Position numbers and translations under genes: made by a program
Shown here: piece after piece, positions 2,864-18,914 of the stretch
Numbering within the stretch: position 1 is the stretch's first letter
How the letters are laid out: every line of letters starts with the position of its first letter
The notes under the pieces: model-generated
The model's input: only the letters and a program-made list of their open reading frames with translations
What the model was told of the DNA's origin: nothing
Database searches by the model: none
Assembly: GCA_913020045.1 (NCBI GenBank)
Contig: CAJWBE010000017.1
Location: forward strand, 1,493-65,492
DNA: 64,000 nucleotides
Origin: an uncultured Oleiphilus sp.
GTDB taxonomy: Bacteria; Pseudomonadota; Gammaproteobacteria; Pseudomonadales; Oleiphilaceae
Reading direction: 5' to 3'

Positions 2864-2865
2864 TG

Positions 2866-3822
2866 TTAGCTTGGGAATAGTTCGAAGGAGTAACGAAATT
2901 TCTGCTGTTGTGCGCCAGATTTATCACCAAAATTAACCAGCAATAAGCGATTACAGATTTTCGATTCCAGGTCAGGCTCATTAAGCGTGCTCTCTTCCAT
3001 CTTACAGCTAGAAACCGCACCCGACTCTTCGATCACTAAGAGTGGCGTAATCAAACCCTGTAACGATGGTTTTTTGCGAAGCGCGCGATCATAAATCCGT
3101 TGTATTGCTGATTTATTAGCATCCATTGTGCGACGTATTTCTTCCGTCGATCGCCCTGCGACGACTTGTTGGGCCGCCTCTTCTTCCACCACTGCTGCAA
3201 ACACTTCATCGGCCTCAGCTACTTCAGTCACAGCGCGAGACGCTAAGCTCAATGATTGCGTTTCGGTTGTTAACTGGGTTTCATCCACACCAGCGCTACG
3301 TTGGGCAGAAGTCGCTCGTGAAGCAAGTTTATCATTCACCTTACGGGCAATAGGTTTAGCCGTAATCGTCTTCGGTGTATCCAATTTAACTGTGTCAGCT
3401 AAAGCGCTTAGCTTTGATAGCTGCGAGCTCATTGCAAGTAAACCAGACTTCTTTGCTTTCTCCCGCGCCAGTTTTACGTCTTTCTTCTTCGGTTTCGGCT
3501 TAGGTTTTTTGGCTACCTTAGGCTCCGGTTTTTTCTTGGGCTTAGGTTTCTCAGCAACTTTTTCCTCGGGTTTTGGCTCGGGTTTCTTCTCTTCTTTTTT
3601 CTTGATAATAGGCTTTGGTAACTCTTTCTTTTTAAGAACTACTTTTGCCAGTTGTGGTGGAAGTTTTTCCAACTCTTCGCGCTTTTGCTCAGGCAGGTTG
3701 GTCAAGCTTACAAACACAGCCACAAGCAAAAACACTGGCACCACTGCCGCCATAATGCGGATTAGTCGGCGCTTTTCCCCTTTCTCGGGATTCCACGGTA
3801 AGCCTTGGCGTACAAAAATCAC
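2866..3822 (-). CDS. TonB-like energy transducer with an AgmX/PglI-type C-terminal domain
   Basis: It has an N-terminal TM helix (IMAAVVPVFLLVAVFVSL) and a Lys/Pro/Glu rod (KKEEKKPEPKPEEKVAEKPKPKKKPEPKVAKKPKPKPKKK). The C-terminus IQRIYDRALRKKPSLQGLITPLLVIEESGAVSSCKMEES...ICNRLLLVNF looks more like the AgmX/PglI pattern than the canonical TonB_C YP..A motif. Confidence 0.75.
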   Translation of the reverse strand: MIFVRQGLPWNPEKGEKRRLIRIMAAVVPVFLLVAVFVSLTNLPEQKREELEKLPPQLAKVVLKKKELPKPIIKKKEEKKPEPKPEEKVAEKPKPKKKPEPKVAKKPKPKPKKKDVKLAREKAKKSGLLAMSSQLSKLSALADTVKLDTPKTITAKPIARKVNDKLASRATSAQRSAGVDETQLTTETQSLSLASRAVTEVAEADEVFAAVVEEEAAQQVVAGRSTEEIRRTMDANKSAIQRIYDRALRKKPSLQGLITPLLVIEESGAVSSCKMEESTLNEPDLESKICNRLLLVNFGDKSGAQQQKFRYSFELFPS

Positions 3823-3824
3823 GA

Positions 3825-4325
3825 TTAAGCCTCCTGTGCAACCTGGCGACTAACGGCTAGCGAAATGCTCGCATAACCCGCATCAACGCAAGTCGACATA
3901 ATTTTCTTTAGCAACTCATAAGGCAGTTCTTTGTCAGCAACAATCGTGATAGGGCGCCCTGCATCTGGCGCTGGAGAGCGAGCTCTCGCCGATTGATAGT
4001 CAAGCTCCGCTTTTAAAAGGGGCTCAACATCGCCGTCAAAAGCACGCATATCAGCGACTTTTACGATGGGTCGACCACCTACCAAAATATTTTCGCCCGT
4101 CACTGCAAGCGCAAGCGCTTCTTTAGGCATTTGGTCGGCATTCGATACTGGTAATTCGATTTTCTTATTCTGGTTAAGAACTTGAACATCGGAAGAAGAG
4201 TTAACCATCAAGAAAAAAACCAAAATGGTAAAAATATCCATCAACGAAACAAGGTTCAGCTTGCTCTGGTTCTTCCCACGACGCTGATGCCGTTGAATCC
4301 GTTTAGCCTTGGCAGACTCTTTCAT
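3825..4325 (-). CDS. exbD: ExbD/TolR family biopolymer transport protein
   Basis: 166 aa. LNLVSLMDIFTILVFFLMV contains the single TM helix with the conserved Asp. The ATGA overlaps the upstream exbD. Confidence 0.9.
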   Translation of the reverse strand: MKESAKAKRIQRHQRRGKNQSKLNLVSLMDIFTILVFFLMVNSSSDVQVLNQNKKIELPVSNADQMPKEALALAVTGENILVGGRPIVKVADMRAFDGDVEPLLKAELDYQSARARSPAPDAGRPITIVADKELPYELLKKIMSTCVDAGYASISLAVSRQVAQEA

Positions 4326-4867
4326 GATTTCACCTTGCTTTGTTCCATGTGGTCTTTGTTCGCAACATTGTCGCTCTCACCCACTATGTTCGGAGCATCC
4401 GCGATGGAAACCTCAGGAAATAACTCTGCGTAAACCACACTGCCTGCCAATACCGTCTGAAATGCTCGCACCGTATCCATGACCGTGACCAAGGTCTGAT
4501 AAGAGGTATTCTGCATAGCCATAATAGTAATGTCCTTCTTCTCAGGAACGCGTGCTTTGATGTCCTGCATGACACGGCCAAGCAAATCAAAGTCATAGCC
4601 CTTGTCGCGGCTAGGAATCTGCTTAATCACCCCACCCTTGTTATCTGAAACAACTAACTGATCTTCGAGGATAATCACCTGGAGCTGAAGCGCTTTATCC
4701 AGATCAGTGGACGAATTCGCCGCATCTGGAAAGTTTAACTCCAGCACTGAGGTATGTGCGATGATCATGTTGATCAACAGAATAGGCACCAACACGATCA
4801 TGAGGTTCATGAACGCAGTAATGTCTAAATCTGCTTCCGCTTGATGGCGTCGTAATCGACGTTTCAT
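4322..4867 (-). CDS. exbD: ExbD/TolR family biopolymer transport protein (second paralog)
   Basis: 181 aa. DITAFMNLMIVLVPILLI is followed by a periplasmic domain. Confidence 0.9.
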   Translation of the reverse strand: MKRRLRRHQAEADLDITAFMNLMIVLVPILLINMIIAHTSVLELNFPDAANSSTDLDKALQLQVIILEDQLVVSDNKGGVIKQIPSRDKGYDFDLLGRVMQDIKARVPEKKDITIMAMQNTSYQTLVTVMDTVRAFQTVLAGSVVYAELFPEVSIADAPNIVGESDNVANKDHMEQSKVKS

Positions 4868-4896
4868 AGCCTACTCCCGCTCACGCGATAATTACT

Positions 4897-5592
4897 TCAA
4901 ACAGCCGGAGCGGCTTGCGCACCAAGCGTCGGCTCTTGAGGTTTTGCCGCCTGACGAACTGGCGCCGACGAGCGTTCGCTAATCAAGTTCATGACCTTGA
5001 CGCCTGCCATCTCAAAACTATCAACGATTTCGTTAGTCTTGGTCTGCAATACAGAATGAATCAGCAATAAAGGAATCGCCGCAATCAAACCAAATGCGGT
5101 TGTGTTCATTGCCACAGAAATACTTTGCGAGAGCAAAGACGCTTTTTCAGCAGGGTCTGCCGATGCCACGGCCGTAAACGCTGCGATCAAGCCAATAATG
5201 GTTCCGAGCAGACCAAGTAAAGTGGAAACGTTAGCAAGTGTCGCGAGATACTGCGTTCGTTTTTCTAGACGAGGCATTGTTTCAAGCAGCCCCTCTTCCA
5301 TCGCATACTCAATTTCTTCACGTGGTTGTTTGCGCGCTAATCGCTGTAAACCAGCTCCGACCATTGTGCCCATGGCACTATCGGAGTCAGACGCATACTT
5401 TAATGCGCCGTTTAACTCTTTGCCTCGGATCATTCCATATAACTTATCGAAAACGGTTCGGTTACTTCGCTTTGCAATGGTGAGATAGGTATATCGTTCA
5501 ACGGCGATTATGACGCCCACTAACAATACAATTGAAATCGGATACATGAAGAAACCGCCCTCTTGGAAAAAGCGGATAGTGGTCTCAATCAT
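4897..5592 (-). CDS. exbB: MotA/TolQ/ExbB proton-channel protein
   Basis: FMYPISIVLLVGVIIAVERY ... STLLGLLGTIIGLIAAF ... AMNTTAFGLIAAIPLL is the ExbB/TolQ signature. I prefer the ATG at 5592, which has AGGAG 8 nt upstream, over the ORF-track start at 5637. Confidence 0.9.
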   Translation of the reverse strand: MIETTIRFFQEGGFFMYPISIVLLVGVIIAVERYTYLTIAKRSNRTVFDKLYGMIRGKELNGALKYASDSDSAMGTMVGAGLQRLARKQPREEIEYAMEEGLLETMPRLEKRTQYLATLANVSTLLGLLGTIIGLIAAFTAVASADPAEKASLLSQSISVAMNTTAFGLIAAIPLLLIHSVLQTKTNEIVDSFEMAGVKVMNLISERSSAPVRQAAKPQEPTLGAQAAPAV

Positions 5593-5857
5593 TGCGTGGT
5601 CACTCCTGTAGGATGATTGATTCAAAAAGAAATTCACTGCCCTGCGCTAAATACAGCTCAATAGCGATAAATTACGACAATGTGAAAAAGTGTAGAACGA
5701 ACAAGAAGAAATTGCGGTGATATCTAATGTGCTTTTTGTTGCGTTTTGTGTTCATGGCGATCCTTGCACAAACAAAATGTGACACGCGTCATCTTAATCA
5801 GATAAAAACACTGGATAAACACGTATTTGAGCTGGGCGCATTAATCGCCCTCTATTT

Positions 5858-6187
5858 CTAACGCTTCACGTCGAGCTTTGGGCTCTTCATGAATTGCTCA
5901 TGATACCCAATAAGTCGTTGAAATTCAGTTCTTTCTAATGGTTCTAGTCCTCGCTGAACAGCGAAATTTCTCTCAGGAGCCTCAATCCCTTGAATCTCAG
6001 GATTCTGCCATGGCACCAAATAAAGAATCGTAGGAAGTTCTTGATTCCCTCTAATTTTAGCGCCTTCAATGGTAATAATTTCATCTTCGGCCCAAGCCGT
6101 CTGAAATCCAAGCACCATAACAGCGCTTAGCAAAACGCCACATATCGCTCGACAATTAAGCTCAACTAAACTGAGTTTATCGATCAT
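5858..6187 (-). CDS. Small secreted protein, unknown function
   Basis: 109 aa with a signal peptide (AICGVLLSAVMVLGFQTAWA). The ATGA overlaps the upstream TPR gene. Confidence 0.5.
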   Translation of the reverse strand: MIDKLSLVELNCRAICGVLLSAVMVLGFQTAWAEDEIITIEGAKIRGNQELPTILYLVPWQNPEIQGIEAPERNFAVQRGLEPLERTEFQRLIGYHEQFMKSPKLDVKR

Positions 6188-6843
6188 GCTCCATCCTCCA
6201 AACGCCGCTTGAGGTCGAAAATCCAGTCCTTCACCTGAGAATCTGGTTTATCTAACATAGACTGATATTGCTCATAGAGTGGCAAAGCTTCTTGTAAACG
6301 GCCTAAATACAGGTCAAGCAGTATCGCTAGATTGCGAATAGCTGGCAGGTAGCTAGGGTCTGCCGCCAATGACTGTCGATAAAACGCCTCTGACGCCTCA
6401 AACTTTCCCGACTCTCTAGCCAGTACACCTTTTAAATTAAGCGCCTGTTTATGATCAGGTTTCTGCTTGAGAACTTCGGCTAGCGCGGCCTCAGCATCGT
6501 CATTCTTTTCCTCCAACAACGCAATCTGCGCCAAATTAAAACGCGGATTAATCAGCGCGGGCCGGGCTTCCAAAATTTCTATATAAGCCTCTTTCGCATC
6601 CTCTAACTGGCCCTCACGTTGCATGTTTAGTGCGGCAATGAACTGTTGCTCAAGACGCGAGTTTTCTTTCTGCTTCAGCACATCGGCATCCGACGCTATC
6701 GGTTCTTTTTTTGAAAGCTGAGAACAACCTGCCATCAGTAAGACCAACAAGCTGCACGAGAAATACTTACTCGCCAAGGAAAAACCCTCGGTTAGGCTTG
6801 TGCGAGTGAAAAATGAAACTGGCAACAATTTACTCAAAGACAT
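6184..6843 (-). CDS. TPR-repeat lipoprotein
   Basis: Lipobox LLMAGC. It has TPR-like repeats (EDAKEAYIEILEARP, AEAALAEVLKQKPDH, ASEAFYRQSLAADPSY). It overlaps the upstream gene end by 14 nt. Confidence 0.75.
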   Translation of the reverse strand: MSLSKLLPVSFFTRTSLTEGFSLASKYFSCSLLVLLMAGCSQLSKKEPIASDADVLKQKENSRLEQQFIAALNMQREGQLEDAKEAYIEILEARPALINPRFNLAQIALLEEKNDDAEAALAEVLKQKPDHKQALNLKGVLARESGKFEASEAFYRQSLAADPSYLPAIRNLAILLDLYLGRLQEALPLYEQYQSMLDKPDSQVKDWIFDLKRRLEDGA

Positions 6844-9661
6844 CGGCTAGCTCCTGCTTTAATTCCGCTTTGTCGTAACGACCTGGCAAAAGCTCCTTCA
6901 GCGAAATAAAGCTATTCTTAACCCACTCATCATAAATACCACTCCAGCTTCGACTCGCATTCTGCTCATGAATATCGATGGCATTCTCTTCAAAAGGAAA
7001 GGCCTGTTCCTCCAGCAGAATTTCATACTGCTCAAGCTCGAGTGCGTTAAGACCACCTGGACGATCTGAGTCCATTAAGTCACGGCTCAACTGCGCATAG
7101 ATATCTGCCATACGATAACCAGCCTCAGTAGCAAACGAAGAGACCCCATAGCTGGCAGTCTTCTTGAATGCGGCCATCGCTTTTTCCAACGCTTTTGTTT
7201 TCTTAACCATCGTGACATTCAATGGCAACTTAAGCTTAATCGCCTTATAGCGAGTAAATGCATCGTTCGCCAACACTGACGAAGCAGACGCTGCCAAGTA
7301 AATCATTCTGTCATCCGCCTTTGACCCCAATCGATCGACTGTTTTCATCATCTTCGCTAACCAAAACCGGCGTTTAATAGGCTCGTCATTCTCTTCATAA
7401 ATCTCAGCCAAACGGTTTGCCGCCTCCATATAAACGTCTGCGGGCTCTGGATAGGTGTTGGCATAGCTACGATAATTATCAATGGCTTTATCGACATTCT
7501 TCGCTCTGTCGTATAGCTCAGCGGCAATGAACAACGTTTCCTGTTTTTCTTTCTCTGTTTTAGCGAGCGATATCATTACCTTCAGCTCATCGGCTGCCAA
7601 CTCCCATTGTTCGGTCTCTCGGTAAGCCAACGCCATCTTAGGAACTAAGGTATTTAATTGCAGATGCTGTGGATAGCGACCACGAAACAGTTTCATTTGC
7701 TCGATCGCGGATGACCAATTTTTCAACTCAACGAGGTAGGCAATCGCATCATACTCTGCGTTGGTTCGCAGCGTTGACGTTGGCGCGACTTGCCCCACAC
7801 GCAACAACTCTAAAATTGCGCCTTGTTTGTCTCCTGCCAATAGACGACCCTCGGCTTGCCTGAATACTGTCGCGGCAAGGTTCTCAATCAATGCAGGCTT
7901 ACGCTTATCGCCTTTACCTAGCGCAGCTAAAGCAGACGCATAGGCCCCTTCAGCACGAAGGTAATCTTGCAACGCGTACAAACTGTGCGCTTTGATAATT
8001 TTGGTTTCCAACAATACAGTGGGTGTTGGACTTGGCAACCACACTAACAGTTGATCGGCTAGTTCAATGCTTTGCTCATAACGCTTTTCAGAGAAGGCAA
8101 ACTGCGTGGCGACATACAGTACATCCGCAGCACGCTTATCTGCGTGATGTTGCCTAACAAACAATAATCTGTTCAGCTGCTGACGCTGACGGTTTTCATA
8201 CCACTGCTCTGGACGTTCGGGAGACCAAGTTTTTGCAAACTCGCGATAAGCCAAAATTGCCGCATAAGCCGACTCGGCTGCATTTTCATAGTCTGGAAAG
8301 TCGTAACCCGCCGCTTCAAAAGCGCCGATTGCGAAGGCCCAATTACCCAGCTGAACATGACACTCACCTAACAAGAACAATGAGTTAGCCGTATTTTCAT
8401 GCGAAGGAAACGTATCGACAAACGCTTGATAATACTTCGCGGCTTGCGAATAGTTAGCTTGGCTCTTAGTACGCTCTCCTGTCTTCGCGCTGCGCTGAGC
8501 AATAACGTAATGACGATTAGCAAGCTCTGGCAACAGCAGCTCCAGCTGGCTGTATACGAAGGTTAAATCTTTGTCTTGGTTATCAAACCAATACGGACTT
8601 CCCAGCCCGTACTCATCTACAAACCGCACCTTCTCTTCGAGAATATTGGCTTTAAAACCTGCTTTTTGAAGCGTATGAATCACGTTAACTTGATAGCGAG
8701 GCGCCCATAAACTCAACGGATGAAGTGCAATAAATCGCTGATAGACTTCAATGGCATCGGTGTACTGTTCTTTCCCGATTAGCAAATCACTGTATCGATC
8801 GTAAACAACGATTTCGTAGGCCTTAGGACCCGTTGTCGCAAACAACTCTTCAAGCGCATCTGCTCCGCCTAAGTAAGAAAACGATAGCCCCATCACACGA
8901 AATAGGTCTTCAACCATCGTACGATGTCTAGACTCAACATCCGCTAAGGCCATACTTTTCGGCATCGCCATATCTAATACATCAGCAAAGGCTAGCAAGG
9001 ACTTCTTATAAGCATTTTGCTTAAATAAGCTCCACCCTTTCATATAATTAGCATTCATCAAAAACGGTGATGCGCCCTGATGAATCACAAACTGAAAAGC
9101 CTGTTGAGCAGAGCGATAATGGCCCAATGTAAACAGGATTTCGCCTCGTCTAAATTGCACTTCCGTGGCATAAACAGATTCAGGAAACTGCTCAATCAAA
9201 GCATTCAAGGTAAGCAAATGTTCGTCAACATTACCTTTTAGGTCGTGGGTTTTCGCCAACTGGTAGTAGACTTGATCATTGACCTCTCGGTCAGGGTATT
9301 TCGCAAGTAAGCCTTCATAGGCACTGACCGCGACATCCAACTCATCAATGGCTTGGTCTGCCATTAACTCTTCACCCTTTATTAGTTTCAAGTCTGCTAG
9401 GCGATGAAGCACACTTAATTGCTCCTCTGGATCTGTCAGGAGAGGCAGTAATCGAGTGTAGTTATCAATAACAACTTGAACATCGAGTGGCTCATCGACT
9501 CTGCTCGACAATACCGCTGGTTCAATATCACTTGGTTGAAGCGATTCAAGCCGCGTCGGGTCAAGTTGCGGCTGTTCCGGCGTCGTTTCAAACATCTGGC
9601 ACCCGCTCAAACCCAGCACCAGCATTAACCAGAACGACTGCCTCATTGCTCTTGTTATCAT
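6830..9661 (-). CDS. Large (943 aa) multi-TPR lipoprotein
   Basis: Lipobox LGLSGC. Helical TPR-like repeats run through the whole length (YYQLAKTH, AQQAFQFVI, AIEVYQRFIALHP, AAKYYQAFVDTFP, AIDNYRSYANTYP). The ATGA overlaps the upstream gene. Confidence 0.8.
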   Translation of the reverse strand: MITRAMRQSFWLMLVLGLSGCQMFETTPEQPQLDPTRLESLQPSDIEPAVLSSRVDEPLDVQVVIDNYTRLLPLLTDPEEQLSVLHRLADLKLIKGEELMADQAIDELDVAVSAYEGLLAKYPDREVNDQVYYQLAKTHDLKGNVDEHLLTLNALIEQFPESVYATEVQFRRGEILFTLGHYRSAQQAFQFVIHQGASPFLMNANYMKGWSLFKQNAYKKSLLAFADVLDMAMPKSMALADVESRHRTMVEDLFRVMGLSFSYLGGADALEELFATTGPKAYEIVVYDRYSDLLIGKEQYTDAIEVYQRFIALHPLSLWAPRYQVNVIHTLQKAGFKANILEEKVRFVDEYGLGSPYWFDNQDKDLTFVYSQLELLLPELANRHYVIAQRSAKTGERTKSQANYSQAAKYYQAFVDTFPSHENTANSLFLLGECHVQLGNWAFAIGAFEAAGYDFPDYENAAESAYAAILAYREFAKTWSPERPEQWYENRQRQQLNRLLFVRQHHADKRAADVLYVATQFAFSEKRYEQSIELADQLLVWLPSPTPTVLLETKIIKAHSLYALQDYLRAEGAYASALAALGKGDKRKPALIENLAATVFRQAEGRLLAGDKQGAILELLRVGQVAPTSTLRTNAEYDAIAYLVELKNWSSAIEQMKLFRGRYPQHLQLNTLVPKMALAYRETEQWELAADELKVMISLAKTEKEKQETLFIAAELYDRAKNVDKAIDNYRSYANTYPEPADVYMEAANRLAEIYEENDEPIKRRFWLAKMMKTVDRLGSKADDRMIYLAASASSVLANDAFTRYKAIKLKLPLNVTMVKKTKALEKAMAAFKKTASYGVSSFATEAGYRMADIYAQLSRDLMDSDRPGGLNALELEQYEILLEEQAFPFEENAIDIHEQNASRSWSGIYDEWVKNSFISLKELLPGRYDKAELKQELADVFE

Positions 9662-11772
9662 GGAGCCTCCTCCAGCGCTGAATCCGCCGACTGAGCCTCA
9701 GCCTTACTTTGAGCTGGAGGTAACGAGATGTTTGGTGAACTCTCTTCTCCAACAGATAATTCTTGGTCATCTCGATAAATAGAGTCTGCAATGCGTGCCT
9801 GTGCATGACGTGACGCCAAACGGTAACGACTTACCTCACCCGACTGTCTTCCAAGCTCCTCGCGCACCTGCGTCAAAAGTCTCTCGCGCACGTTAGCCAA
9901 GCCTAGCGCCAACTGCTGTCTAATTTCAGTCAATCTACTTTTTGCGCTATCGACCCGGGCAACCAATGCATGTTGGAAGGAATTATTCGCCAACTCGCTT
10001 TTTAGCTTGGCATGACGAAGTACGAACTCCTCCATCGAACGACCCAACTGCTTCAGTTCTGATTGTGCAGCCCAACGGTTAACGCCGTACCGGTCAGCGA
10101 TCCACCAGGTAAAGTACCCTTCGATTCTTGACAGTTTTTGTTCATATTCAATTTTATCTTCATCGTTTGACAATACAGAGAGGGTTTGTCTAACATTGCG
10201 GATCTGTTGAGCAAATTCCATCTGGGCTTCATCCATGAAAAACTCAATATTCTCTTCCGCTAAAGCCGCGTTAATAACTTTTTCATAAGCACTCTGCTGC
10301 TCTATCCAATGAGCCGCCTGCTGCGCCTCCAGCTCTTTTTCGACCACTCGTAAACGCTCATTACGCTGCGTTTCACGCGTTTCCAGCATCAATTCAAACG
10401 ACGCCAAGCGCTTATCCCACACAGACAAAGAATCCCCTAGCTTGTAGAGTTCATGCAAGTCTCGCAAGCCCCACTGGAAACGCTCGCCCGATAATAGTTC
10501 AGCAATACTGAAATCCGACGGATACACATTGATACGCCCATAAGCATCGTTTTCAACATGGCCGGCGCCAAGTTGCAATTCGCGGCTGCCCATGACTGTT
10601 TCGTTAGTCTGATCGTCATCAATAAGAGCGCTAGCGTCAGCCTCAACATTTGGGGTCGCTATCGCCAGCAGTAACTTTTCCTCGTTGAGTTCACTTTGCT
10701 GCTGCAATAGTTGTTCTAGCTGCAAATCATAGTGCGCCCCAGCACTTTGATAAGCTTGCAGCGCCAAACTTGGCTCGCCCATTTGCTCATATAGATAGGC
10801 CAGTGCATAAGGCACCTGCTGCAACCAAGGCGTAAACAAGTAGGTATCGCGCAAACGATTCAAAGCCGACAGCGCTAACGAGTATTCTTTGTTATGCGCC
10901 ATAGCAACGGCATAATTAAATAAGGCTTGCTCGGAGAACGGACTATCAAAAGAAACCTTTTTAAGATGTCCGGCCGCCCGAGAGTAATCTTTCCCTTCAA
11001 GGCAGAGTTGACCTAGCGTTAGGCGAATACGGTCACCTAACAAGTCTCGCTCGCGCTTGTCTTCATCCGACTCAAGAGAAAGCGTTTTCAAAGACGCTAA
11101 TAGCTTTTCTAAACTCTCACGTGAGCCCACCTCATTAACTTGATTAGGCTCTGTCAGTAAGGCTTGGTTATAGCGTATGTAAACACTAAACAAGGAGTTT
11201 TCGGGGAAGGAGTCGATCCCAAGCGCATTAAGATCATGAACGCCTGGACTTTTCAGCTTCAGTTGAGCCCTGAGATAAACAAGCTCTTCGGCGTTTTCCG
11301 GGCTGTCGTCAGCTAATTGCTCTAGATCCAAGCGTGAGAATGCAGCCTCTGCCGAGCTGAAATCCTGCGCTAAATAATGAACCTTACCTAGGTAAAACCA
11401 AGCTTGGTTTCGAACGCCCGCCGGCACGCGTGCTTCAAGCTCTTCGGCTAATACTGACTCAAAGTGTGACTGCGCTTCATTGACCATACCGTAAGCCAGG
11501 AGAAGACCACCCTCTACCAGCAGAGGGTGATCCGCATGTCCTTTAATTCCGCCGCGTTCTTTTGCGACATTCAGTAGAGTCAGTGCTTCAAATGATTGCC
11601 CCTGGTAATAGTGGAACAATGCCTCACCGTACAAGAGGTCTTTCGCTTGTGCTGGGTAGTCAATGTCAGCCTGGGCGCTCTGCAACCCCAACGCCGCGCC
11701 CAACAAAACACAGGGTAAGCACCTACGTCTTATGCGCCAACAAATCTGTCTAATCGTTTGTCCGATCACCAT
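9658..11772 (-). CDS. Periplasmic TPR plus coiled-coil protein (about 704 aa)
   Basis: It has a signal peptide (CVLLGAALGLQSAQA) and N-terminal TPR-like repeats. The C-terminal third is long heptad-like helices (LEAQQAAHWIEQQSAYEKVINAAL...). I prefer the ATG at 11772, 7 nt after the upstream stop; the track start is 11820. Confidence 0.7.
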   Translation of the reverse strand: MVIGQTIRQICWRIRRRCLPCVLLGAALGLQSAQADIDYPAQAKDLLYGEALFHYYQGQSFEALTLLNVAKERGGIKGHADHPLLVEGGLLLAYGMVNEAQSHFESVLAEELEARVPAGVRNQAWFYLGKVHYLAQDFSSAEAAFSRLDLEQLADDSPENAEELVYLRAQLKLKSPGVHDLNALGIDSFPENSLFSVYIRYNQALLTEPNQVNEVGSRESLEKLLASLKTLSLESDEDKRERDLLGDRIRLTLGQLCLEGKDYSRAAGHLKKVSFDSPFSEQALFNYAVAMAHNKEYSLALSALNRLRDTYLFTPWLQQVPYALAYLYEQMGEPSLALQAYQSAGAHYDLQLEQLLQQQSELNEEKLLLAIATPNVEADASALIDDDQTNETVMGSRELQLGAGHVENDAYGRINVYPSDFSIAELLSGERFQWGLRDLHELYKLGDSLSVWDKRLASFELMLETRETQRNERLRVVEKELEAQQAAHWIEQQSAYEKVINAALAEENIEFFMDEAQMEFAQQIRNVRQTLSVLSNDEDKIEYEQKLSRIEGYFTWWIADRYGVNRWAAQSELKQLGRSMEEFVLRHAKLKSELANNSFQHALVARVDSAKSRLTEIRQQLALGLANVRERLLTQVREELGRQSGEVSRYRLASRHAQARIADSIYRDDQELSVGEESSPNISLPPAQSKAEAQSADSALEEAP

Positions 11773-11779
11773 AGTTGGA

Positions 11780-12433
11780 TTAATCCCACTCGACGATGCT
11801 GACATGAGGTTGATAATCATTTGACTGATCTCTCACCCGAATTTCGAGCGCTTTTAAGTCGGTACCCTTTTCGAAACTCAAGGAGGCTGCCTTCTTATAA
11901 TGACGACTATCCGGACCCAGCCCTTCTACAAAAACCGTCACTTCATGATCACCCGTTTTCAAATTCCCCATGTGCAAGCGCTGCATGCCGCCACGATGGA
12001 GTGCCTTGGTTTGACGATCTGTATACAAGTGCGTCGCAACGACCTCATCATCCAATTTTAATTTGACGCTATCCAAGCGCAGGAACTGACCGGTGTCCAC
12101 GCTCAAAAATACAGAAAACTGCGTATTGGCAGGGAACAATAAATCTTCTTCTAGGATAAATAAGTCACGATTAAGTCGAATAACTTTCTTCTTCAACTCT
12201 TCTAAACTCAGTGCTACTGGCTGGGTTTGATCAATTTCAGTCTCAGCATTAAGGTTTTCATCGTTAGCTACTGCAGCGCCCGCGAGCTCCGCACTATCGG
12301 CGACTGTCTCAGAGTTTTGTAAAGGGTTTTGTGGTGGCTCTTGCGCGAAACTACTGCTTGCCAATCCTAACAAGCAAATAAAGACGCCTTTAGACCAGCA
12401 AGAAACAAGGTGATGAGGATGCGTAATTTTCAT
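11780..12433 (-). CDS. Periplasmic protein, unknown function (about 217 aa)
   Basis: It has a signal peptide (VFICLLGLASSSFAQ), an acidic linker and a beta-rich C-terminal domain. The ATG at 12433 has AGGA upstream; the track start is 12484. Confidence 0.55.
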   Translation of the reverse strand: MKITHPHHLVSCWSKGVFICLLGLASSSFAQEPPQNPLQNSETVADSAELAGAAVANDENLNAETEIDQTQPVALSLEELKKKVIRLNRDLFILEEDLLFPANTQFSVFLSVDTGQFLRLDSVKLKLDDEVVATHLYTDRQTKALHRGGMQRLHMGNLKTGDHEVTVFVEGLGPDSRHYKKAASLSFEKGTDLKALEIRVRDQSNDYQPHVSIVEWD

Positions 12434-12447
12434 GTGCAATGGTCCTG

Positions 12448-13629
12448 TTAAAATTCCACTATGAGTGACGTACGCGTCACCCATGCATCAAATTGATATA
12501 GGGGCTCGTCGCCCGGCAGAAAACTACCTTCCGCCGTGACGTCTCGAAAGTTTTCGTATTGGTAGTCTAGGTAATCTCCCTGCAAGCTGAATTGCATGCG
12601 CTTAACAAAGGGGATAACACCTTGCTTAATTTCATAACTTACGCCAAAACCAATGGTCGTACCGTCATAGGTACTAAGCTCTTTATCTCTACCATAATGA
12701 GTTTGTGAATTTGCGAACGGAAATAAATCGGAATAAAACTCAGCTTGATCTTGGGTGTATAGACGATAGCTCACCTCAAATATCCAGCTCTCTTGAAAAG
12801 CATGGCTGTAGGCAATGTCATAGGTGTGGGACTGAATATCCCAGCTATCGTTAAAATATCGATACTCTGCTTTTATTGAGGCGCGATACGGCAAGTAATA
12901 CATTCCACGTAAACCAAACGCTGTACTCGTTCGCGTGTCGGGATAGTTTTCTTCCTGTACCAAAAAATTTGTTGCATCACCGGGGTCGATAAAGCGATTA
13001 GATCGATAAGGGTTTTCTAATTTTCCTTCATCCGTAATGACATCAACATCTAGTCCAATAATGGCATTTTTGGTGAGTACTTGAGTCACGCCTAACTTGT
13101 AGTTCTGTCGATTCGCTTCTTCAAATTCGCTCCGGTCCTGGTCCCGCTTACCCACATCATCCCAGCCTCTCGCATACGCTAACGAAAGTGAGGTGAGGTC
13201 GCCAAAAAAATCTTGCGCAATGCCAAAGTAAGCAGTGTTCGCTTCGTAATCGTTTTCCGAACTATTAGTATAGCCCGCACTTAGAATCGCTTTTTCATAT
13301 AGAAAGTCGACACCGCCGCTCATCTCGGTACGCTCTTCTTCGTACTCGCTCGCTCCGGAGGCGATGACATCGACAGACGCCGCCGAAATCGAATCAACGT
13401 AATGGTGCCCTGTCACGGAGACTTGAGGACCAATACTCTTTCGAACCAACAGCGACGGGCCATTAATTTTCATGCCACCGCCATCATAGTTGTGATACAT
13501 CAAATCCACAGAGTCAGGAGGCAGTGTTGCTCCAGACACGAAACTAGAGGCAACGAGCGTCCCAACGAGGGCGCCACACAGTGACAAAGCCCGGACAGTC
13601 AGTCGAGATGAGACAGCTTGCTTGAGCAC
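12448..13629 (-). CDS. DUF3570-like outer-membrane beta-barrel protein
   Basis: It has a signal peptide and alternating beta-strand patterns, and it ends with ...RTSLIVEF (C-terminal Phe beta-signal). Position next to DUF4266 and TlpA matches the trio I know. The GTG at 13629 lies 1 nt after the DUF4266 stop; the track start is 13722. Confidence 0.65.
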   Translation of the reverse strand: MLKQAVSSRLTVRALSLCGALVGTLVASSFVSGATLPPDSVDLMYHNYDGGGMKINGPSLLVRKSIGPQVSVTGHHYVDSISAASVDVIASGASEYEEERTEMSGGVDFLYEKAILSAGYTNSSENDYEANTAYFGIAQDFFGDLTSLSLAYARGWDDVGKRDQDRSEFEEANRQNYKLGVTQVLTKNAIIGLDVDVITDEGKLENPYRSNRFIDPGDATNFLVQEENYPDTRTSTAFGLRGMYYLPYRASIKAEYRYFNDSWDIQSHTYDIAYSHAFQESWIFEVSYRLYTQDQAEFYSDLFPFANSQTHYGRDKELSTYDGTTIGFGVSYEIKQGVIPFVKRMQFSLQGDYLDYQYENFRDVTAEGSFLPGDEPLYQFDAWVTRTSLIVEF

Positions 13630-13630
13630 C

Positions 13631-13867
13631 CTAGTTACAACCACAACCACCTCCCGTTCCACCTTCGGCACCGCGGGCACCTTCACGCGCTTGATATACG
13701 TGATGCATATAGGTATCGGCAAAGCCGTTTCGGCTGAGGCTCATAATAGGGTCTGCCAGGTTGTCCCGCTCGTAAGGTTTTACCCAGGGTTTAAAGTCCG
13801 CACAGGCAACGCCCATCGTAGACAACAGTGCAATAACAACAAATCTAGTCAGTAAGCGGATCTTCAT
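13631..13867 (-). CDS. DUF4266-like small lipoprotein
   Basis: MKIRLL...LSTMGVAC lipobox. The C-terminus ...GGTGGGCGCN is the distinctive glycine/cysteine tail of DUF4266. Confidence 0.7.
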   Translation of the reverse strand: MKIRLLTRFVVIALLSTMGVACADFKPWVKPYERDNLADPIMSLSRNGFADTYMHHVYQAREGARGAEGGTGGGCGCN

Positions 13868-13890
13868 GTGGCAACCTTTCAAAATCATTC

Positions 13891-14406
13891 TTATTCGCGA
13901 ATCAATGTTTTAACTTGCTTAGCATAGTCATCTTCATAACCAGGCTTGTAACCCCTGTGCATAAACCGACGATTCCCATTTCGATCAATCATAATGGTCG
14001 TCGGCATCGCATCCACGTCATATAACTCGCTGATTCGGCTCTCGTTATCGTAAAGAATAGGAAATGTAACCGGCACCGCATCTAAAAAGCGGTCTGCATC
14101 TGACGAGTCTTCGTCCACGTTGACAGCCAAAATGGTAAAACCGAACTTACTGTATTTTTTATAGATGTCATCCATTAGCGGCATTTCTTGACGACAAGGC
14201 CCGCACCAAGAAGCCCAAAAGTTCAGCATGACGACTTCGCCGCGTAAATCCTCTAAACGAACATTCGCGCCCTCTTTGTTTTTCAAGGTAAAGTCAGGTG
14301 CTAGCCCTTCCACTTCGTTTGCACTGATCACCGTACTCGTTAGTAATACTGCTGCCACCAGACTCCGCCATGTAAAACCAAATAGTCTATTCACAATAAT
14401 GTTCAT
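13891..14406 (-). CDS. TlpA/ResA/DsbE-family periplasmic thiol:disulfide oxidoreductase
   Basis: It has a signal peptide. APDFTLKNKEGANVRLEDLRGEVVMLNFWASWCGPCRQEMP contains the WCGPC thioredoxin active site. Confidence 0.9.
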   Translation of the reverse strand: MNIIVNRLFGFTWRSLVAAVLLTSTVISANEVEGLAPDFTLKNKEGANVRLEDLRGEVVMLNFWASWCGPCRQEMPLMDDIYKKYSKFGFTILAVNVDEDSSDADRFLDAVPVTFPILYDNESRISELYDVDAMPTTIMIDRNGNRRFMHRGYKPGYEDDYAKQVKTLIRE

Positions 14407-14480
14407 TCTCTGTATCCCTCTTAACGAATAATGTCTGCATTACTTGTTTGCCGACACACGGCTTAAATTGTTTACGTCAC

Positions 14481-15125
14481 CTAAAAGAAAAAAGATAAAC
14501 CAGTACTTAGCTCTGTATTCATACTGGTTTTGGTTTCTCCCAACACATCAATATCGTAAAAATGCTCGCGAAATGTCACATGCATCGCTAACCAATCATT
14601 GACCAGCACCTGATACCCAGCACCCGCCATCGCCGTGAAGCGATTATCGCCAGCAAAATCAGTGGCGCCCGCACCACCGATCAAGTAAAAGTTGGTGTTG
14701 AACGCATAGGTGTCGCCAGAAAAAGGGCCTTTTAAAAACGCCTCACCAGGAAGAATATTGTAGCCAAATGCAACATTGTAAAACCGGTATTCACGGTCCT
14801 CGTCCGACAGAAGCTCAACATTACCAGCCAGCTTTTCAAAGCTAGTTTCTCCGCCCTCAGCTAGGCCAAGATTGGCTTCCAAAAAGAACGACTCAGTCAA
14901 GTGATACGCAACTCGCACGCCATAAAGCATTGAAGACTCGAAGTCTTCAATATTAATCACCCCACCAAACACACCCAATTCGAAGTTTTCTGTATCAATT
15001 AATGATTCATCAACTTTCTGTGGTCGCACATCGGGCTCTATGAGCGGTTTAACCTCTTCTGCGGACGCGGCCATAGCCCCTATCGCCAAAAAGAAAGACA
15101 GCACACCACGACATAAGTGAGGCAT
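14481..15125 (-). CDS. Small outer-membrane beta-barrel protein (about 214 aa)
   Basis: It has a signal peptide (VLSFFLAIGAMAASA), alternating hydrophobic strands and the terminal ...STGLSFFF. The ATG at 15125 shares one base with the upstream TAA (TAATG). Confidence 0.7.
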   Translation of the reverse strand: MPHLCRGVLSFFLAIGAMAASAEEVKPLIEPDVRPQKVDESLIDTENFELGVFGGVINIEDFESSMLYGVRVAYHLTESFFLEANLGLAEGGETSFEKLAGNVELLSDEDREYRFYNVAFGYNILPGEAFLKGPFSGDTYAFNTNFYLIGGAGATDFAGDNRFTAMAGAGYQVLVNDWLAMHVTFREHFYDIDVLGETKTSMNTELSTGLSFFF

Positions 15126-15898
15126 TAAAAAAATACGCTTAGTCCTAATTTCCATTCTGTTGCTTCTTCATTAGATTCTTCGTTAGTAAAAACTTTATAG
15201 TCATTCACTTCGAGGCGAACAAAAAAACGATCGCTGACATAACAACGCATGCCGATTCCTGCGTGGGCCATCGAGTTAATACTGTTATCGACACTCAGCA
15301 ATGTTGCTTTGGGTTTTATCTTGATCTGCCCGCCACCTATTCTAAAGAATGGAGAGAAGCGCCACTGAGGAAAGGGCTGATGAACAAGCGCCGCACTGAG
15401 CATTTGTATTTCGGAACTGTTTCCTAAAATCTGTGACACGGATAATTCCGCGGATAAATTTGCGGTCATCCAATAGCCCAAATAACCCGAATTAACGGCG
15501 GTGCTGTCGAATTCACCCATCTGCAAACCCGACTCCCAGCGGCGCGTTCTGAAGTCGTCAAACCTAGGCTCTGTAATCGAGACCGTGTCTCCCGTCGCGT
15601 CCTCGGTAAGCAATAAGTCATCAATCGATACCCAGCCCAAGCGGCCTTTCGCATCGCTGACCTTCATCCAATCAGTTTTACGCTTAAGCAGAGTTAGCCA
15701 TTCACCTTTTTCGCTCGTGTGAATAACGGGAAACCCCTGTGCTGGACCGGAACGGAAGTCAATAAACGGTTCTGCCACTCTCACCTGCTGAGTATTGGAG
15801 TCCGCAACCCAAAACTTCCACCAGTCGTCAGCAGCCGCCTCAAGCGACAGCATGCTAAACAACAATAAACAGATAGAACGTTGTAACAACTTAATCAT
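15125..15898 (-). CDS. SH3-domain plus outer-membrane beta-barrel protein
   Basis: It has a signal peptide and a bacterial SH3-like segment (FIDFRSGPAQGFPVIHTSEKGEWLTLLKRKTDWMKVSDAKGRLGWV). The barrel-like C-terminal half ends ...WKLGLSVFF. Confidence 0.7.
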   Translation of the reverse strand: MIKLLQRSICLLLFSMLSLEAAADDWWKFWVADSNTQQVRVAEPFIDFRSGPAQGFPVIHTSEKGEWLTLLKRKTDWMKVSDAKGRLGWVSIDDLLLTEDATGDTVSITEPRFDDFRTRRWESGLQMGEFDSTAVNSGYLGYWMTANLSAELSVSQILGNSSEIQMLSAALVHQPFPQWRFSPFFRIGGGQIKIKPKATLLSVDNSINSMAHAGIGMRCYVSDRFFVRLEVNDYKVFTNEESNEEATEWKLGLSVFF

Positions 15899-15985
15899 AA
15901 AACCTTTCTACAAAGGGTCACGGGGTAGACACTAAACAAGCTGATTAAACGACTCATCAAGCGACTCAATTCACTTATTAAAATG

Positions 15986-18712
15986 CTAGTTTTCTGGTGC
16001 CAAAAACGGGTTATTCCAGTATTGGGCGCCGATATCTAGCCACTCTGAGATTAACTTTAGCTCAACCCCACTCAAATACCCGTCATGACTGCCGCCATTT
16101 TCAAATAGATTAATAAAATTGGGGCTCGACAGCGCTCCGCCCACTCGCATCGTTGGTGCGACAGGTATTGGTACTGGGTCGAAAATAGGGATTGGGTTCC
16201 CATCGCCGTCCAAAGCTAACTCTCCATCCTCATCAACTTCAAATTCTCCGGTGTCCACTAAGACAATGACGTCCTGTAGAATGCCACCATTAATTTCTTG
16301 CTCATTGTCATTGAACAATAACTCCCGATACGACTTAAAGTGGTCTGCTTCATCAGTGGACGCTCCGTTACTTAAGTCCAGTTGAGCAACGGGAACCATC
16401 GTGGCATCCATGTCATCGACGTCATCATGGCAACTGGTGCATGTGTTATCGGCCAAGACGGTCACCTCATCAACATCAAACACGCGGCGATCAACCTGCC
16501 AGATAGGATGTATGTGTTCAGGGTAGTTGATGGTCAAACGGCATAGGCTGCTACCCAGCAACAAACAGGGGCTGTCTGGCGCAACCGGAGAATTGGAGAG
16601 CAGATCTTCATAAAGGTAAGCGATTGGGTCAGCCTTGGCCGTTACCATCTCATCGGTCCACTCATCCTCATAAACAATATCGGCCGTTAAGTTTCTGACG
16701 CCGTTCACCAAGGCATAAACTTCAGCCATCGTTTCGCCCAAGTCCGCCGACAAACCGGGCTCCGAATTAGGAAAGGCGCCAATGGTCAATGCACCTGGGT
16801 TAATGGTGCTGGGCCCAGCATCAACGCGACCATGCGGCACTTCACTCGCACCTGTATGGCAACCTAAACACTCAATACTCTCTCCAGGCCTAACGGTTAA
16901 CCAGTTTTGGTGACGCTGAGAAGTTCGGCGTCCGTTTTCATCCAATATGCTAATCGCAAATGCCACGTTAGCCGGTACCGTAAATTTAACTGAACCGTCA
17001 GGCTCAACCGGCACATAGCCGAGAATTTCTCGCATAGATTGCGCTCTACTGCGGCCAAAGGCGGTATTCTGAAAGTCATACTCAAACTCACTCGGAATAG
17101 AGACCGGTTTTTCGATTCGCACAAAACGCGCAGGCCGGTCGTCAGCAGACGACAATATTGGGTTCGCGGTATCTGCGGGATTGCCAAGCGGGCTAGTATC
17201 AACACCATCAAAATCGTAAACGCTGCGGATATGAACAACACCTAAACCATCATCAGCTAACGCCGTTGCATCCCCGTCAAGTACTATCGGTTCAATGAAG
17301 TTTGGACTCACGCGTTCTGTCAACACCACAGCCTCATCAAACATTTGCCCTTGTTCAGGAAGTTCAATGGGTCGCTGGGTATCGCCGTCCACAATCCATA
17401 GTCCGTAAAGTGGAGCGGCAGATTCGTAATCGCCCGAGTTAATTTTCTCTTGCGTGCAGATTTCTACTGGATTGTTATTAATGGCATCAGGGTCAGCCAG
17501 ACTCTCGCGAATACGGCAAATACTCCATGAAGCCAAATAACGGTTTGTGCCGTCATATAATGGAAACAGCGACCCATAGTTGCCTTCAAGGCTAGGTTCG
17601 CCAGACGTGTTCACGCCAGACACCACCTCAGACTGCCCTGAACCTGGAAAACCTTGAATCGTTTGATCGGCCTCGACATAGTCGCTCACCGCTATTTGCA
17701 TCGGCTTGCCACTATAGATCTGCGACTCAAACTCTCTCAACTTAACAATAATGTCTCCATTTGGCGCCTCTAAAGGTCGAGAATACTGCACAGCCCCTCC
17801 GTCGCCGGAGTCATGGGAGTGCCTTCCATATAGGTAGTTAAGGCCGGTGCCGTCTGGGTTCACCTCATAAAGGTTCATACCGTTATTACCGGTTTGACCT
17901 GCGTTATCCCAGCGAGAAAATAGAATCTTACCGTTCTGCTGCACGACAGGATTGAGGTCATGACTTTGGTTGAAGGTTATTTGCTCAATGTTACTCCCGC
18001 TCTGCTCTACGACATGCAGCAAAAATGACTCAACATAACGATCACCGTTCAGGTCATTTAAGCGGTCTTCTTCGGTCGCCGCATATTGAGACTTACCTTC
18101 GTCCGTTAGAATCCCTTTGGAAATCTTCTGTCGCGTTGATGAGAAAACGATGCGTCCGTCCGGCAAAAACGCGGGCGAAATATCATGCCCATTTGCTGCG
18201 GTTCCGTCAGTCATGACTTTTGACAGACTCTCGCTCTCCATATCGTAAAGCCACAAGTTCCAGCGTGGTTGAAATTCAGGGTCTATCCCTTCCAGCTCAG
18301 GCGCTCGCATAGAAAATACGAGCTTCGTTCCATCAGGCGAGACGTTTAAATCTCGGACGTCATAATTCGGTTCGCTAAATGCGCTTGAAGAGATATCTTT
18401 CGCCAAGGCATCTGGAGACGAATTCGCTTTGATATATAAACGTGCCCCAGGCCGAAATGTCTGAGGAATACGCAGATCATCCGTTTGCAGTTGATTGGGG
18501 TCATCCTCATCAAACAAAAGCGGTCTTTTGATAAATGCCACTGCCTGATCTGAAATAACAGGGCCAGACGAGCCATCACTGCTACCAAGACTACAAGCAG
18601 ACAATACCAGGGTAACAAGCGCCAGATAGGCACTAAGGCGCAATTTCATCACGAGTTTTTTGTTAATAAATGTTAACTGCAAAATATTCACAAATGGTTT
18701 CCTGTTCCACAT
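15986..18712 (-). CDS. TolB/PD40-like beta-propeller lipoprotein with two CXXCH motifs
   Basis: Lipobox LVLSAC. PD40-type repeats: NVSPDGTKLVFSMR, ISPAFLPDGRIVFSSTR, LNPVVQQNGKILFSRWD. The CXXCH motifs are CLGCH (16844-16870 region) and CTSCH (16427-16441). The start is uncertain: ATG 18712 has GAGG upstream, while ATG 18649 gives a canonical 19-aa lipoprotein signal. Confidence 0.75.
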   Translation of the reverse strand: MWNRKPFVNILQLTFINKKLVMKLRLSAYLALVTLVLSACSLGSSDGSSGPVISDQAVAFIKRPLLFDEDDPNQLQTDDLRIPQTFRPGARLYIKANSSPDALAKDISSSAFSEPNYDVRDLNVSPDGTKLVFSMRAPELEGIDPEFQPRWNLWLYDMESESLSKVMTDGTAANGHDISPAFLPDGRIVFSSTRQKISKGILTDEGKSQYAATEEDRLNDLNGDRYVESFLLHVVEQSGSNIEQITFNQSHDLNPVVQQNGKILFSRWDNAGQTGNNGMNLYEVNPDGTGLNYLYGRHSHDSGDGGAVQYSRPLEAPNGDIIVKLREFESQIYSGKPMQIAVSDYVEADQTIQGFPGSGQSEVVSGVNTSGEPSLEGNYGSLFPLYDGTNRYLASWSICRIRESLADPDAINNNPVEICTQEKINSGDYESAAPLYGLWIVDGDTQRPIELPEQGQMFDEAVVLTERVSPNFIEPIVLDGDATALADDGLGVVHIRSVYDFDGVDTSPLGNPADTANPILSSADDRPARFVRIEKPVSIPSEFEYDFQNTAFGRSRAQSMREILGYVPVEPDGSVKFTVPANVAFAISILDENGRRTSQRHQNWLTVRPGESIECLGCHTGASEVPHGRVDAGPSTINPGALTIGAFPNSEPGLSADLGETMAEVYALVNGVRNLTADIVYEDEWTDEMVTAKADPIAYLYEDLLSNSPVAPDSPCLLLGSSLCRLTINYPEHIHPIWQVDRRVFDVDEVTVLADNTCTSCHDDVDDMDATMVPVAQLDLSNGASTDEADHFKSYRELLFNDNEQEINGGILQDVIVLVDTGEFEVDEDGELALDGDGNPIPIFDPVPIPVAPTMRVGGALSSPNFINLFENGGSHDGYLSGVELKLISEWLDIGAQYWNNPFLAPEN

Positions 18713-18914
18713 AATCACCCTCACTGTAACGACTTAGGTCAGGATTATGTTCCTAAGTATGTGCGCTTCTGCGGTTCTCTCCATAGCACTTAAGTAACGC
18801 AATGTAAGGGTGTGAGCTAGCACTCAATTGCTCTCCAATAAGTTCAACTACACTAGAAAACATCGTAATTAAGACCTGTTGTCTTGAAGCATAGGTCAAT
18901 TGAGGACACTCGCC

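Follow-up and report, generated by a model that had tools for sequence, protein, structure and literature searches.

The subject of this report is a run of cell-envelope genes in a 64,000-nucleotide stretch of DNA from an uncultured Oleiphilus sp. (GenBank assembly GCA_913020045.1, contig CAJWBE010000017.1, positions 1,493 to 65,492), which is called the window below. Its closest named relatives are found in Oleiphilus and Marinobacter. Two modules lie side by side. Module G (2866-12433) comprises an AglR-like channel, two ExbD-like proteins, a GltG-like protein, GltD-, GltE- and GltC-like tetratricopeptide repeat (TPR) proteins, and the small proteins u109 and u217. Module R (12448-25336), a redox set of the periplasm and outer membrane, includes a hydrazine synthase (HZS)-like protein, small barrels, TlpA, DUF4266, DUF3570, a divergent operon, and ApbE. 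The Glt part was already known, and the new elements are its recurrent coupling to a redox module, the protein u217, and a putative stator with one aspartate.

Gene content and layout of the locus

The features of both modules are listed in order of their coordinates.

2866-3822, minus strand: GltG-like transducer of the TonB/TolA type, 318 aa (NF033768, GltG model)
3825-4325, minus strand: ExbD/TolR paralogue 2, AglS position, 166 aa (Pfam ExbD, 66.1 bits)
4322-4867, minus strand: ExbD/TolR paralogue 1, AglQ position, 181 aa (Pfam ExbD, 43.9 bits)
4897-5592, minus strand: AglR-like TolQ/ExbB proton channel, 231 aa (Pfam MotA_ExbB, 105 bits)
5593-5857, minus strand: intergenic gap of 265 nt, preceding the motor genes
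5858-6187, minus strand: u109, small secreted protein, 109 aa, conserved in 55 loci
6184-6843, minus strand: GltE-like TPR lipoprotein, 219 aa (TPR families; lipobox MAGC)
6830-9661, minus strand: GltD-like large TPR lipoprotein, 943 aa (TPR, YbgF and BamD-type matches; lipobox LSGC)
9658-11820, minus strand: GltC-like TPR protein, up to 720 aa (weak TPR matches)
11780-12433, minus strand: u217, secreted protein, 217 aa, in every case directly upstream of the GltC-like gene
12448-13644, minus strand: DUF3570 protein, probable large outer membrane barrel ending in Phe (PF12094, 132 bits)
13631-13867, minus strand: small DUF4266 lipoprotein with a C-terminal CGC (PF14086, 81 bits)
13891-14406, minus strand: periplasmic thiol-disulfide oxidoreductase of the TlpA/ResA type with CGPC (AhpC-TSA, Redoxin; ResA subfamily, 132 bits)
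14481-15125, minus strand: small outer membrane beta-barrel, OMP_myx_plus, 214 aa (TIGR04565, 146 bits, cut-off 60; C-terminal FFF)
15125-15898, minus strand: small outer membrane beta-barrel, 257 aa, which carries a periplasmic SH3 domain at its N-terminus (SH3_3/SH3_4 and OMP_b-brl)
15986-18712, minus strand: HZS-alpha-like di-haem lipoprotein, 908 aa (PF18582, 64 bits; PD40; lipobox LSAC)
18900-20150, plus strand: secreted mono-haem protein bearing signatures of the planctomycete type, PSCyt3/PSD2 (DUF1588/DUF1585), encoded at the head of the divergent operon
20153-22693, plus strand: di-haem LamG (concanavalin-like) lipoprotein (Laminin_G_3, 68 bits; lipobox ISAC)
22718-24298, plus strand: u526, strongly conserved periplasmic protein with a Tat signal (TRREFI)
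24347-25336, minus strand: secreted ApbE flavin transferase, convergent with u526 (PF02424, 267 bits)

An earlier note, made from the sequence alone, had described the minus-strand genes as one translationally coupled operon for a candidate Glt-type machine. Its layout was reproduced by an open reading frame (ORF) listing and a junction script. Fifteen consecutive minus-strand ORFs run from 18724 down to 2866. With the starts set by independent gene callers on identical metagenomic contigs, the junctions agree with the note: neighbouring genes share one base at 15125 (TAATG), four bases (ATGA) at 9658-9661, 6184-6187, and 4322-4325, and 14 nt at 6830-6843, and the wider gaps measure 265 nt (5593-5857), 74 nt (14407-14480), and 87 nt (15899-15985). 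These starts also give a second 14-nt overlap, between the DUF4266 and DUF3570 genes (13631-13644). The junctions of the AglR-like gene with the first ExbD-like gene and of the latter with the second are 29 nt and -4 nt, respectively, and the joint between the two modules (u217/DUF3570) is 14 nt. The term translational coupling fits only part of the junctions. By a crude hydropathy scan (not SignalP), all 15 products carry an N-terminal hydrophobic segment, a lipobox, or a transmembrane (TM) helix, as expected from the envelope location that had been claimed, and all three barrel-type proteins end in Phe. Pfam and NCBIfam also recovered the domains named in the earlier note, namely MotA_ExbB, two ExbD domains, AgmX/PglI, three TPR proteins, two outer membrane barrels, TlpA/ResA, DUF4266, DUF3570, and a protein with two CXXCH motifs. 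The limits set at 2866-18724 were too narrow, as module R reaches past 18724 through the divergent operon (18900-24298) and ApbE to 25336.

That all 15 genes share one transcript is not established, since a hairpin-bearing gap of 265 nt precedes the motor genes and since scans for consensus promoters and terminators (2500-19200) did no better than shuffled sequence and were not used to define transcripts. The hairpin (GGGCG-ATTAATG-CGCCC, 5834-5850) directly follows the u109 stop codon, and the motor block is missing at this point, after u109, in Hahella and several Oleiphilus loci. The gap may mark where one module ends, or it may hold an internal promoter. The Hahella copy without motor genes (L059) corresponds to HCH_02601-02603, and its motor is found in a nearby second cluster. 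Rfam gave no match in positions 1-30000 of the window.

Luciano et al. (2011) described a core complex of aglR, aglQ, aglS, gltD, gltE, gltG, gltC, and one extra gene, which is clustered in several Gammaproteobacteria with unknown function (PMC3169522). Their Table S3 lists Maqu_1807-1814 of Marinobacter aquaeolei as GltG (324 aa), AglS (166 aa), AglQ (170 aa), and AglR (235 aa), then a skipped tag, followed by GltE (189 aa), GltD (952 aa), and GltC (648 aa); cores are also listed in Cellvibrio, Saccharophagus, Shewanella, and Teredinibacter (PMC3169522). In this literature, later papers included, the core is treated as a standalone seven-protein "basal transport machinery" (PMC3169522, PMC3858216). 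No functional study of the gammaproteobacterial core was found in the literature. In the syntenic locus of M. nauticus (L036), ORF order and sizes match Maqu_1807-1814. Because of this match to Table S3, the products of 720, 943, and 219 aa (T720, T943, and T219) are assigned as GltC-like, GltD-like, and GltE-like, respectively. Judged by gene order and size, the nine promoter-distal genes from u217 to the GltG-like gene (2866-12433) are the Agl/Glt core, gene for gene with Maqu_1807-1814, which bears out the statement in the earlier note that a reduced core exists in Gammaproteobacteria.

The assignment to Myxococcus proteins was made through NCBIfam models and the published Table S3, not through Myxococcus sequences. 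Profile searches, which had been proposed as a check, detected two of the families at scores under their cut-offs: the GltG-like protein scored 42.7 bits against the NCBIfam GltG model (E 2.8e-11, cut-off 650), and the GltE-like protein, in the position of Maqu_1812, scored 34.8 bits against the GltE model (E 9e-9), far under the cut-off of 225. No GltD-, GltC-, GltA-, or GltB-type NCBIfam model matched at E <= 10. The GltD-like protein is the orthologue of Maqu_1813, an MXAN_4870 homologue in Table S3. Marinobacter orthologues of the GltC-like protein have 648-654 aa, in agreement with Maqu_1814, given in the same table as a homologue of MXAN_2541. Counted from its first ATG, the GltC-like ORF shares 41 nt with u217, and the true start is probably internal since homologues align only from about residue 30-56.

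The motor consists of one TolQ/ExbB-type gene followed by two distinct, adjacent TolR/ExbD-type genes, the arrangement that marks an Agl/Glt core. The AglR-like protein has three TM segments; the gene caller places its start at ATG 5592, and the ORF reaches a GTG at 5637. The TM aspartate is kept in paralogue 2 (LMDIF, 57 of 57 orthologues), which has the same size as Maqu_1808. Paralogue 1 carries Asn in place of this residue (FMNLM or FLNLM in 56 of 57 orthologues). From this conservation, a one-Asp stator is predicted, in which the plug is heteromeric and has just one Asp that can be protonated. The GltG-like protein, whose orthologue agrees in size with Maqu_1807, has a short cytoplasmic tail (only about 17 residues), one TM helix (18-36), a linker rich in Lys and Pro, and a C-terminal domain that passes the AgmX/PglI model NF033768 (63.7 bits, cut-off 40). 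Pfam TonB_C did not match this anchor even at E <= 10, and Pfam FHA did not match it either. The ordinary TonB_C terminus that the earlier note had named as evidence against its own proposal was thus not seen.

Two small proteins complete module G. The first, u109, has no Pfam or NCBIfam match and is the "additional gene" of the gammaproteobacterial core, in the gltF position of Myxococcus; it matches the locus-tag gap at Maqu_1811. The second, u217, was found in 74 of the 75 genome loci described below, core-only loci included, and is therefore a core member that is absent from the list of Luciano et al. The AlphaFold2 model of u217 shows a signal peptide, an acidic linker, and a helix, together with an Ig/transthyretin-like beta-sandwich (mean pLDDT, the predicted score of the local distance difference test, 77; above 90 in the sandwich). 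Foldseek returned only generic beta-sandwiches, and Pfam returned no match. The NCBI name "AraC family transcriptional regulator" for its homologues was rejected, as an export signal is present and the named domain is absent.

Redox module and its linkage to the core

The HZS-alpha-like lipoprotein of module R consists of a beta-propeller, an HZS middle domain, and a C-terminal domain, with two CXXCH haem motifs. The motif pair is invariant in seven divergent orthologues and present in 57 of 59. The protein aligns collinearly but weakly with the hydrazine synthase structure 5C2V_A (35.5 bits). Against NCBIfam NF052339 it scores 51.5 bits, with a cut-off of 800, and domain scans of the block found no HZS beta/gamma or CCP/MauG-type domains in neighbouring genes. 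The identity of a hydrazine synthase was ruled out on the score and the missing beta/gamma partner, and the protein is certainly not one. HZS-alpha homologues without an assigned function are known from non-anammox organisms (PMC12758564). The two small barrel genes next to it encode proteins that both have N-terminal extensions and are weakly similar to each other; the SH3-barrel scores 38 bits against TIGR04565, below the cut-off of 60.

The thiol motifs of the next two proteins are fully conserved, the CxxC of TlpA in 63 of 63 orthologues and the C-terminal CxC of DUF4266 likewise in 63 of 63. DUF3570 is described as an ApbE substrate (PMC8238504). In the window, it has one canonical flavinylation-type motif, DVIASGAS, at a conserved site, and a SGAT where the signal peptide is cleaved. 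Flavinylation at two sites was considered and dropped, as the orthologue alignment places one motif at the signal-peptidase site and finds the other in canonical form in the window lineage alone. In Marinobacter, Hahella, and others, DVLAT-AS is preceded by DSxSAAS, yet ApbE is still found beside the locus. Either the flavinylation motif is relaxed in this DUF3570 subfamily, or ApbE has another substrate.

The divergent operon adds further haem proteins. The product of 18900-20150 matches PSD2 at 23.5 bits, just under the cut-off, and PSCyt3 weakly; it is co-conserved with the locus and has one CXXCH in 58 of 58 orthologues. Two N-terminal CXXCH motifs are found in all 50 orthologues of the LamG lipoprotein. 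The third protein, u526, has more than 8000 homologues with about 70% identity across genera, and no Pfam match or PDB sequence match. Its AlphaFold2 model is poor (pLDDT 56), and the Foldseek matches are weak and non-significant (E >= 0.026), all to enzymes of the alkaline phosphatase superfamily; the model thus points to this fold as a possibility. The NCBI name "general secretion pathway protein GspF" for u526 homologues was rejected on account of the export signal and the absence of such a domain. The public names of u217 and u526 look like propagated misannotations. ApbE occupies the same position at the module edge in Marinobacter (L082) and lies near u526 in 16 of the 32 metagenomic loci with enough flank.

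To follow the two modules across genomes, species-representative genomes were scanned with an alignment of the GltC-like protein, which gave 75 loci, and these were searched by tblastn with all window proteins. An HZS alignment served to scan metagenomes; it found at least 547 relatives, of which the best 80 were retained. About 55 genomes of Marinobacter, Oleiphilus, and Hahella preserve the full 15-gene order together with the divergent PSD2-LamG pair. The arrangement is far beyond chance because this order recurs although the GltC-like proteins in these genomes are only 33-49% identical. Co-conservation of the redox genes with the core, which had been predicted from the sequence, was therefore seen in many genomes.

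Each module is also conserved separately. At 22-33% identity, Bermanella, Halioglobus, and Steroidobacteraceae retain the nine-gene block from u217 to GltG; it stands without redox genes in Bermanella, and the order in Halioglobus and Steroidobacteraceae is SH3-barrel<-HZS | PSD2->LamG->u526->u217->core. Module R, with nine genes, is complete in 19 of the 23 HZS-anchored metagenomic loci with enough flank. Where both flanks were resolved (21 metagenomic loci), the core follows DUF3570 as in the window in seven, follows u526 in seven, and is not found nearby in seven. In one locus (L095), module R stands alone between housekeeping genes (RNase H/DnaQ on one side and CorC/ffh/rimM/trmD on the other). 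Since module R occurs alone and the core joins it at two different ends, the region is a fusion of two separately conserved envelope modules and not one ancestral 15-gene operon. The recurrence of two independent junction types argues that proximity has been selected rather than inherited once. The proposal of a Glt-type machine consequently stands for nine of the 15 genes; none of the tests run here marks the six promoter-proximal genes as Glt parts, and they form a separate module because they are conserved also without a nearby Glt core.

The two small barrels occur in loci that carry module R alone. A second, more divergent Glt-type core was observed in a metagenome-assembled genome of an uncultured Bermanella sp. 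(L081, 6020-16667), where an SH3-barrel and an OMP_myx_plus barrel lie divergently upstream of the core and no HZS, DUF3570, or cytochrome genes are present. This suggests that the barrels are general partners of gammaproteobacterial cores. As they are found with module R alone and, in L081, beside a core without HZS, the two barrels are the likeliest interface between the modules.

Beyond module R, a YfhO-like membrane protein that carries an F5/8 type C domain is encoded at 25333-27957 (minus strand), overlapping the ApbE start by 4 nt, and a GT2 glycosyltransferase and a methyltransferase follow at 28223-29221 and 29531-30328 (both plus strand). This glycan-related set (25333-30328) is probably not part of the system because Marinobacter has a chemoreceptor gene upstream of ApbE instead. 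An unrelated signalling pair, a FecR-domain protein and then a CHASE2 histidine kinase, lies at 33575-37852 (plus strand). About 35 kb away, an 802-aa ORF with a von Willebrand A domain is found at 52455-54863 (minus strand); it is mentioned as a side observation because the Myxococcus Glt adhesin CglB is also a von Willebrand A protein.

Proposed mechanism and rival explanations

In the Myxococcus model, an AglR5-AglQ-AglS stator acts with GltG, the C-terminus of GltG contacts GltD, and GltE is bound to GltD (PMC11761067, PMC4488436). GltC binds the paired OmpA-like barrels GltA/GltB (PMC4488436, PMC11761067), and the propeller lipoprotein CglB is handled by GltA/B/K (PMC11761067). By analogy with this system and with Nfs and Tol-Pal, proton flow through an AglR pentamer with a heteromeric plug would act on the GltG-like protein. 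The Lys/Pro linker of the latter would span the peptidoglycan and engage a GltD/GltE scaffold beneath the outer membrane, which the GltC-like protein would link to the paired small barrels. The mechanical work could then assemble, gate, move, or expose a redox cargo, for which the DUF3570 barrel and the haem lipoproteins are the candidates. The HZS-like propeller lipoprotein beside the barrels would, in this comparison, resemble CglB as handled by GltA/B/K. We give about an even chance to the reading that a proton-driven Tol/Ton-like transducer is docked to the two barrels by its GltC-like protein and that it energises an outer membrane redox complex or positions it. A narrower version is rather doubtful: here the ancestral Glt-type motor would be a mechanical energiser that positions, gates, or exposes the di-haem propeller lipoprotein together with a DUF3570 barrel that may be flavinylated, and the inner membrane proton gradient would be coupled to outer membrane or extracellular electron transfer. 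To our knowledge, no known system couples an inner membrane proton gradient in this way to outer membrane electron transfer.

Several points weigh against a docked transducer. The parts, their homology assignments, their conservation, and their recurrent linkage are observed in genomes, whereas analogy alone supplies the physical contact between them, the way in which energy would flow, and any redox substrate. The barrels are candidate counterparts of GltA/GltB. A third of the resolved loci carry module R without a nearby Glt core, the core also exists without module R, and neither module strictly requires the other in cis. The 265-nt gap with its hairpin, together with the gaps of 74 and 87 nt, leaves room for several transcripts. 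The canonical [S/T]GA[S/T] motif of DUF3570 is found only in the window and its nearest relative (L007) and is degenerate (DVLAT-AS, DSxSAAS) in 61 of the 62 other orthologues. The model of u526 is poor, and its fold assignment is a mere hint.

The same facts on autonomy support the explanation that the two systems are independent and merely adjacent, with module R as a self-sufficient oxidoreductase system of the periplasm and outer membrane, fed via TlpA, DUF4266, and DUF3570, and the Glt core serving an unrelated task such as envelope maintenance or polymer transport. Module R alone between housekeeping genes (L095), the seven of 21 resolved loci without a core, the core-only locus of Bermanella (L077), and the cores that Luciano et al. 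list in Cellvibrio, Saccharophagus, Shewanella, and Teredinibacter would all fit, as would the DUF3570/DUF4266/thioredoxin/ApbE clusters described without a motor (PMC8238504). However, more than one lineage shows each of the two fusion topologies, only 14 nt separate the modules in the window, the linkage holds while protein identity drops to 22-37%, and the barrels travel with either module. We regard mere adjacency as possible but somewhat unlikely. Uptake of the TonB/Tol type is an unlikely explanation; here the GltG-like protein would energise import of metal or another substrate via DUF3570 or the small barrels, and the haem, flavin, and thiol proteins would then reduce or oxidise the substrate within the periplasm, for example in iron assimilation. 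The ExbB/ExbD/TonB-like architecture of motor and anchor, the large DUF3570 protein ending in Phe, and the VIT1 iron transporter in some DUF3570 clusters (Meheust et al., PMC8238504) are in its favour, but the conserved block holds no Plug or TonB-dependent-receptor domain and no inner membrane transporter gene, the anchor lacks a Pfam TonB_C match, and TonB systems have no counterpart of the large GltD/E/C scaffold.

A machine for surface gliding or for spore-coat-type polymer transport, as in Myxococcus Agl-Glt or Nfs, is very improbable. Although the core is homologous to Agl/Glt and the LamG domain could bind carbohydrate, the GltG-like protein without FHA and with about 17 cytoplasmic residues offers no link to a cytoplasmic platform, and Luciano et al. 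argued that the core alone is insufficient for motility (PMC3169522). GltH, GltI, GltJ, and GltK were not recognised by family or position in the block, in general scans that included no direct search with Myxococcus sequences. A gliding motor was considered and rejected for two of these reasons, the missing FHA domain of the anchor and the failure of those scans to recognise GltH-K in the block.

Since 2011, the Agl/Glt core outside the myxobacteria has been without an assigned function, although it is considered ancestral to the machines for gliding and for the spore coat. The recurrent, rearrangement-tolerant linkage to an outer membrane module of haem, flavin, and thiol proteins names a candidate cargo for the core and is a first testable clue. 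Marinobacter and Hahella, which carry the linkage, are cultivable and genetically tractable genera. The orphan system of DUF3570, DUF4266, and TlpA gains an envelope context, as do the widespread proteins of the HZS-alpha-like and PSD types and those misnamed "GspF". If the coupling between motor and redox module is real, Tol/Ton-type motors would have gained a new use.

Comparison with known systems

The Tol-Pal and ExbB-ExbD-TonB systems share with the window a proton-driven stator of the 5:2 type, a Pro/Lys-rich anchor that spans the periplasm, and, in the GltD-like protein, TPR signatures of the YbgF/CpoB type. In contrast, the ExbD/TolR pair of the window is non-identical, with one member lacking the TM Asp, the anchor has a C-terminus of the AgmX/PglI type, and the system includes no TolB, Pal, or TonB-dependent receptor.

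Hydrazine synthase alpha (5C2V) and its homologues (PMC12758564) are collinear with the HZS-like protein over the propeller, middle, and C-terminal domains and share both haem motifs; the window protein differs in being a lipoprotein of an aerobic marine gammaproteobacterium with very weak similarity. DUF3570, DUF4266, a thioredoxin-like protein, and ApbE have been described as a flavinylation-associated system of unknown role (Meheust et al. 2021, PMC8238504). The earlier note knew of no description of the combination of redox and Glt genes. No paper on the whole combination was found, whereas the set of TlpA, DUF4266, and DUF3570 (with ApbE) is already described (PMC8238504). The described clusters and the window have the same Pfam families side by side, the CxC of DUF4266, and a secreted ApbE at the edge (PMC8238504). 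However, the thioredoxin-like protein of the window is of the TlpA/ResA type (AhpC-TSA/Redoxin) and not PF13899, the locus is without DsbD, and the trio sits between outer membrane barrels and a Glt core.

With the Myxococcus Agl-Glt and Nfs machines, the window shares a TolQR-like motor with two distinct TolR-like subunits, a TonB/TolA-like GltG with an AgmX/PglI C-terminus, a GltD/E/C TPR scaffold, and, as putative counterparts of GltA/GltB, a pair of small OmpA-like barrels encoded near the GltC-like gene. GltG of M. xanthus carries FHA and TonB_C, whereas the GltG-like protein of the window is without FHA, and GltH, GltI, GltJ, GltK, and CglB are not recognisable in the block. Cytoplasmic coupling through FHA on GltG or through GltI/GltJ has no counterpart here, as domain scans of the block found no other single-pass or cytoplasmic protein. 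The block has no cytoplasmic platform genes, and the candidate cargo consists of redox proteins instead of an adhesin or glycan. The closest likeness is to the Agl/Glt core itself, with which the window agrees in both the set and the order of genes (GltC-GltD-GltE-[small extra gene]-AglR-AglQ-AglS-GltG). To this core the window adds u217, and many genomes join it to a nine- to ten-gene module of haem, flavin, and thiol proteins with barrels.

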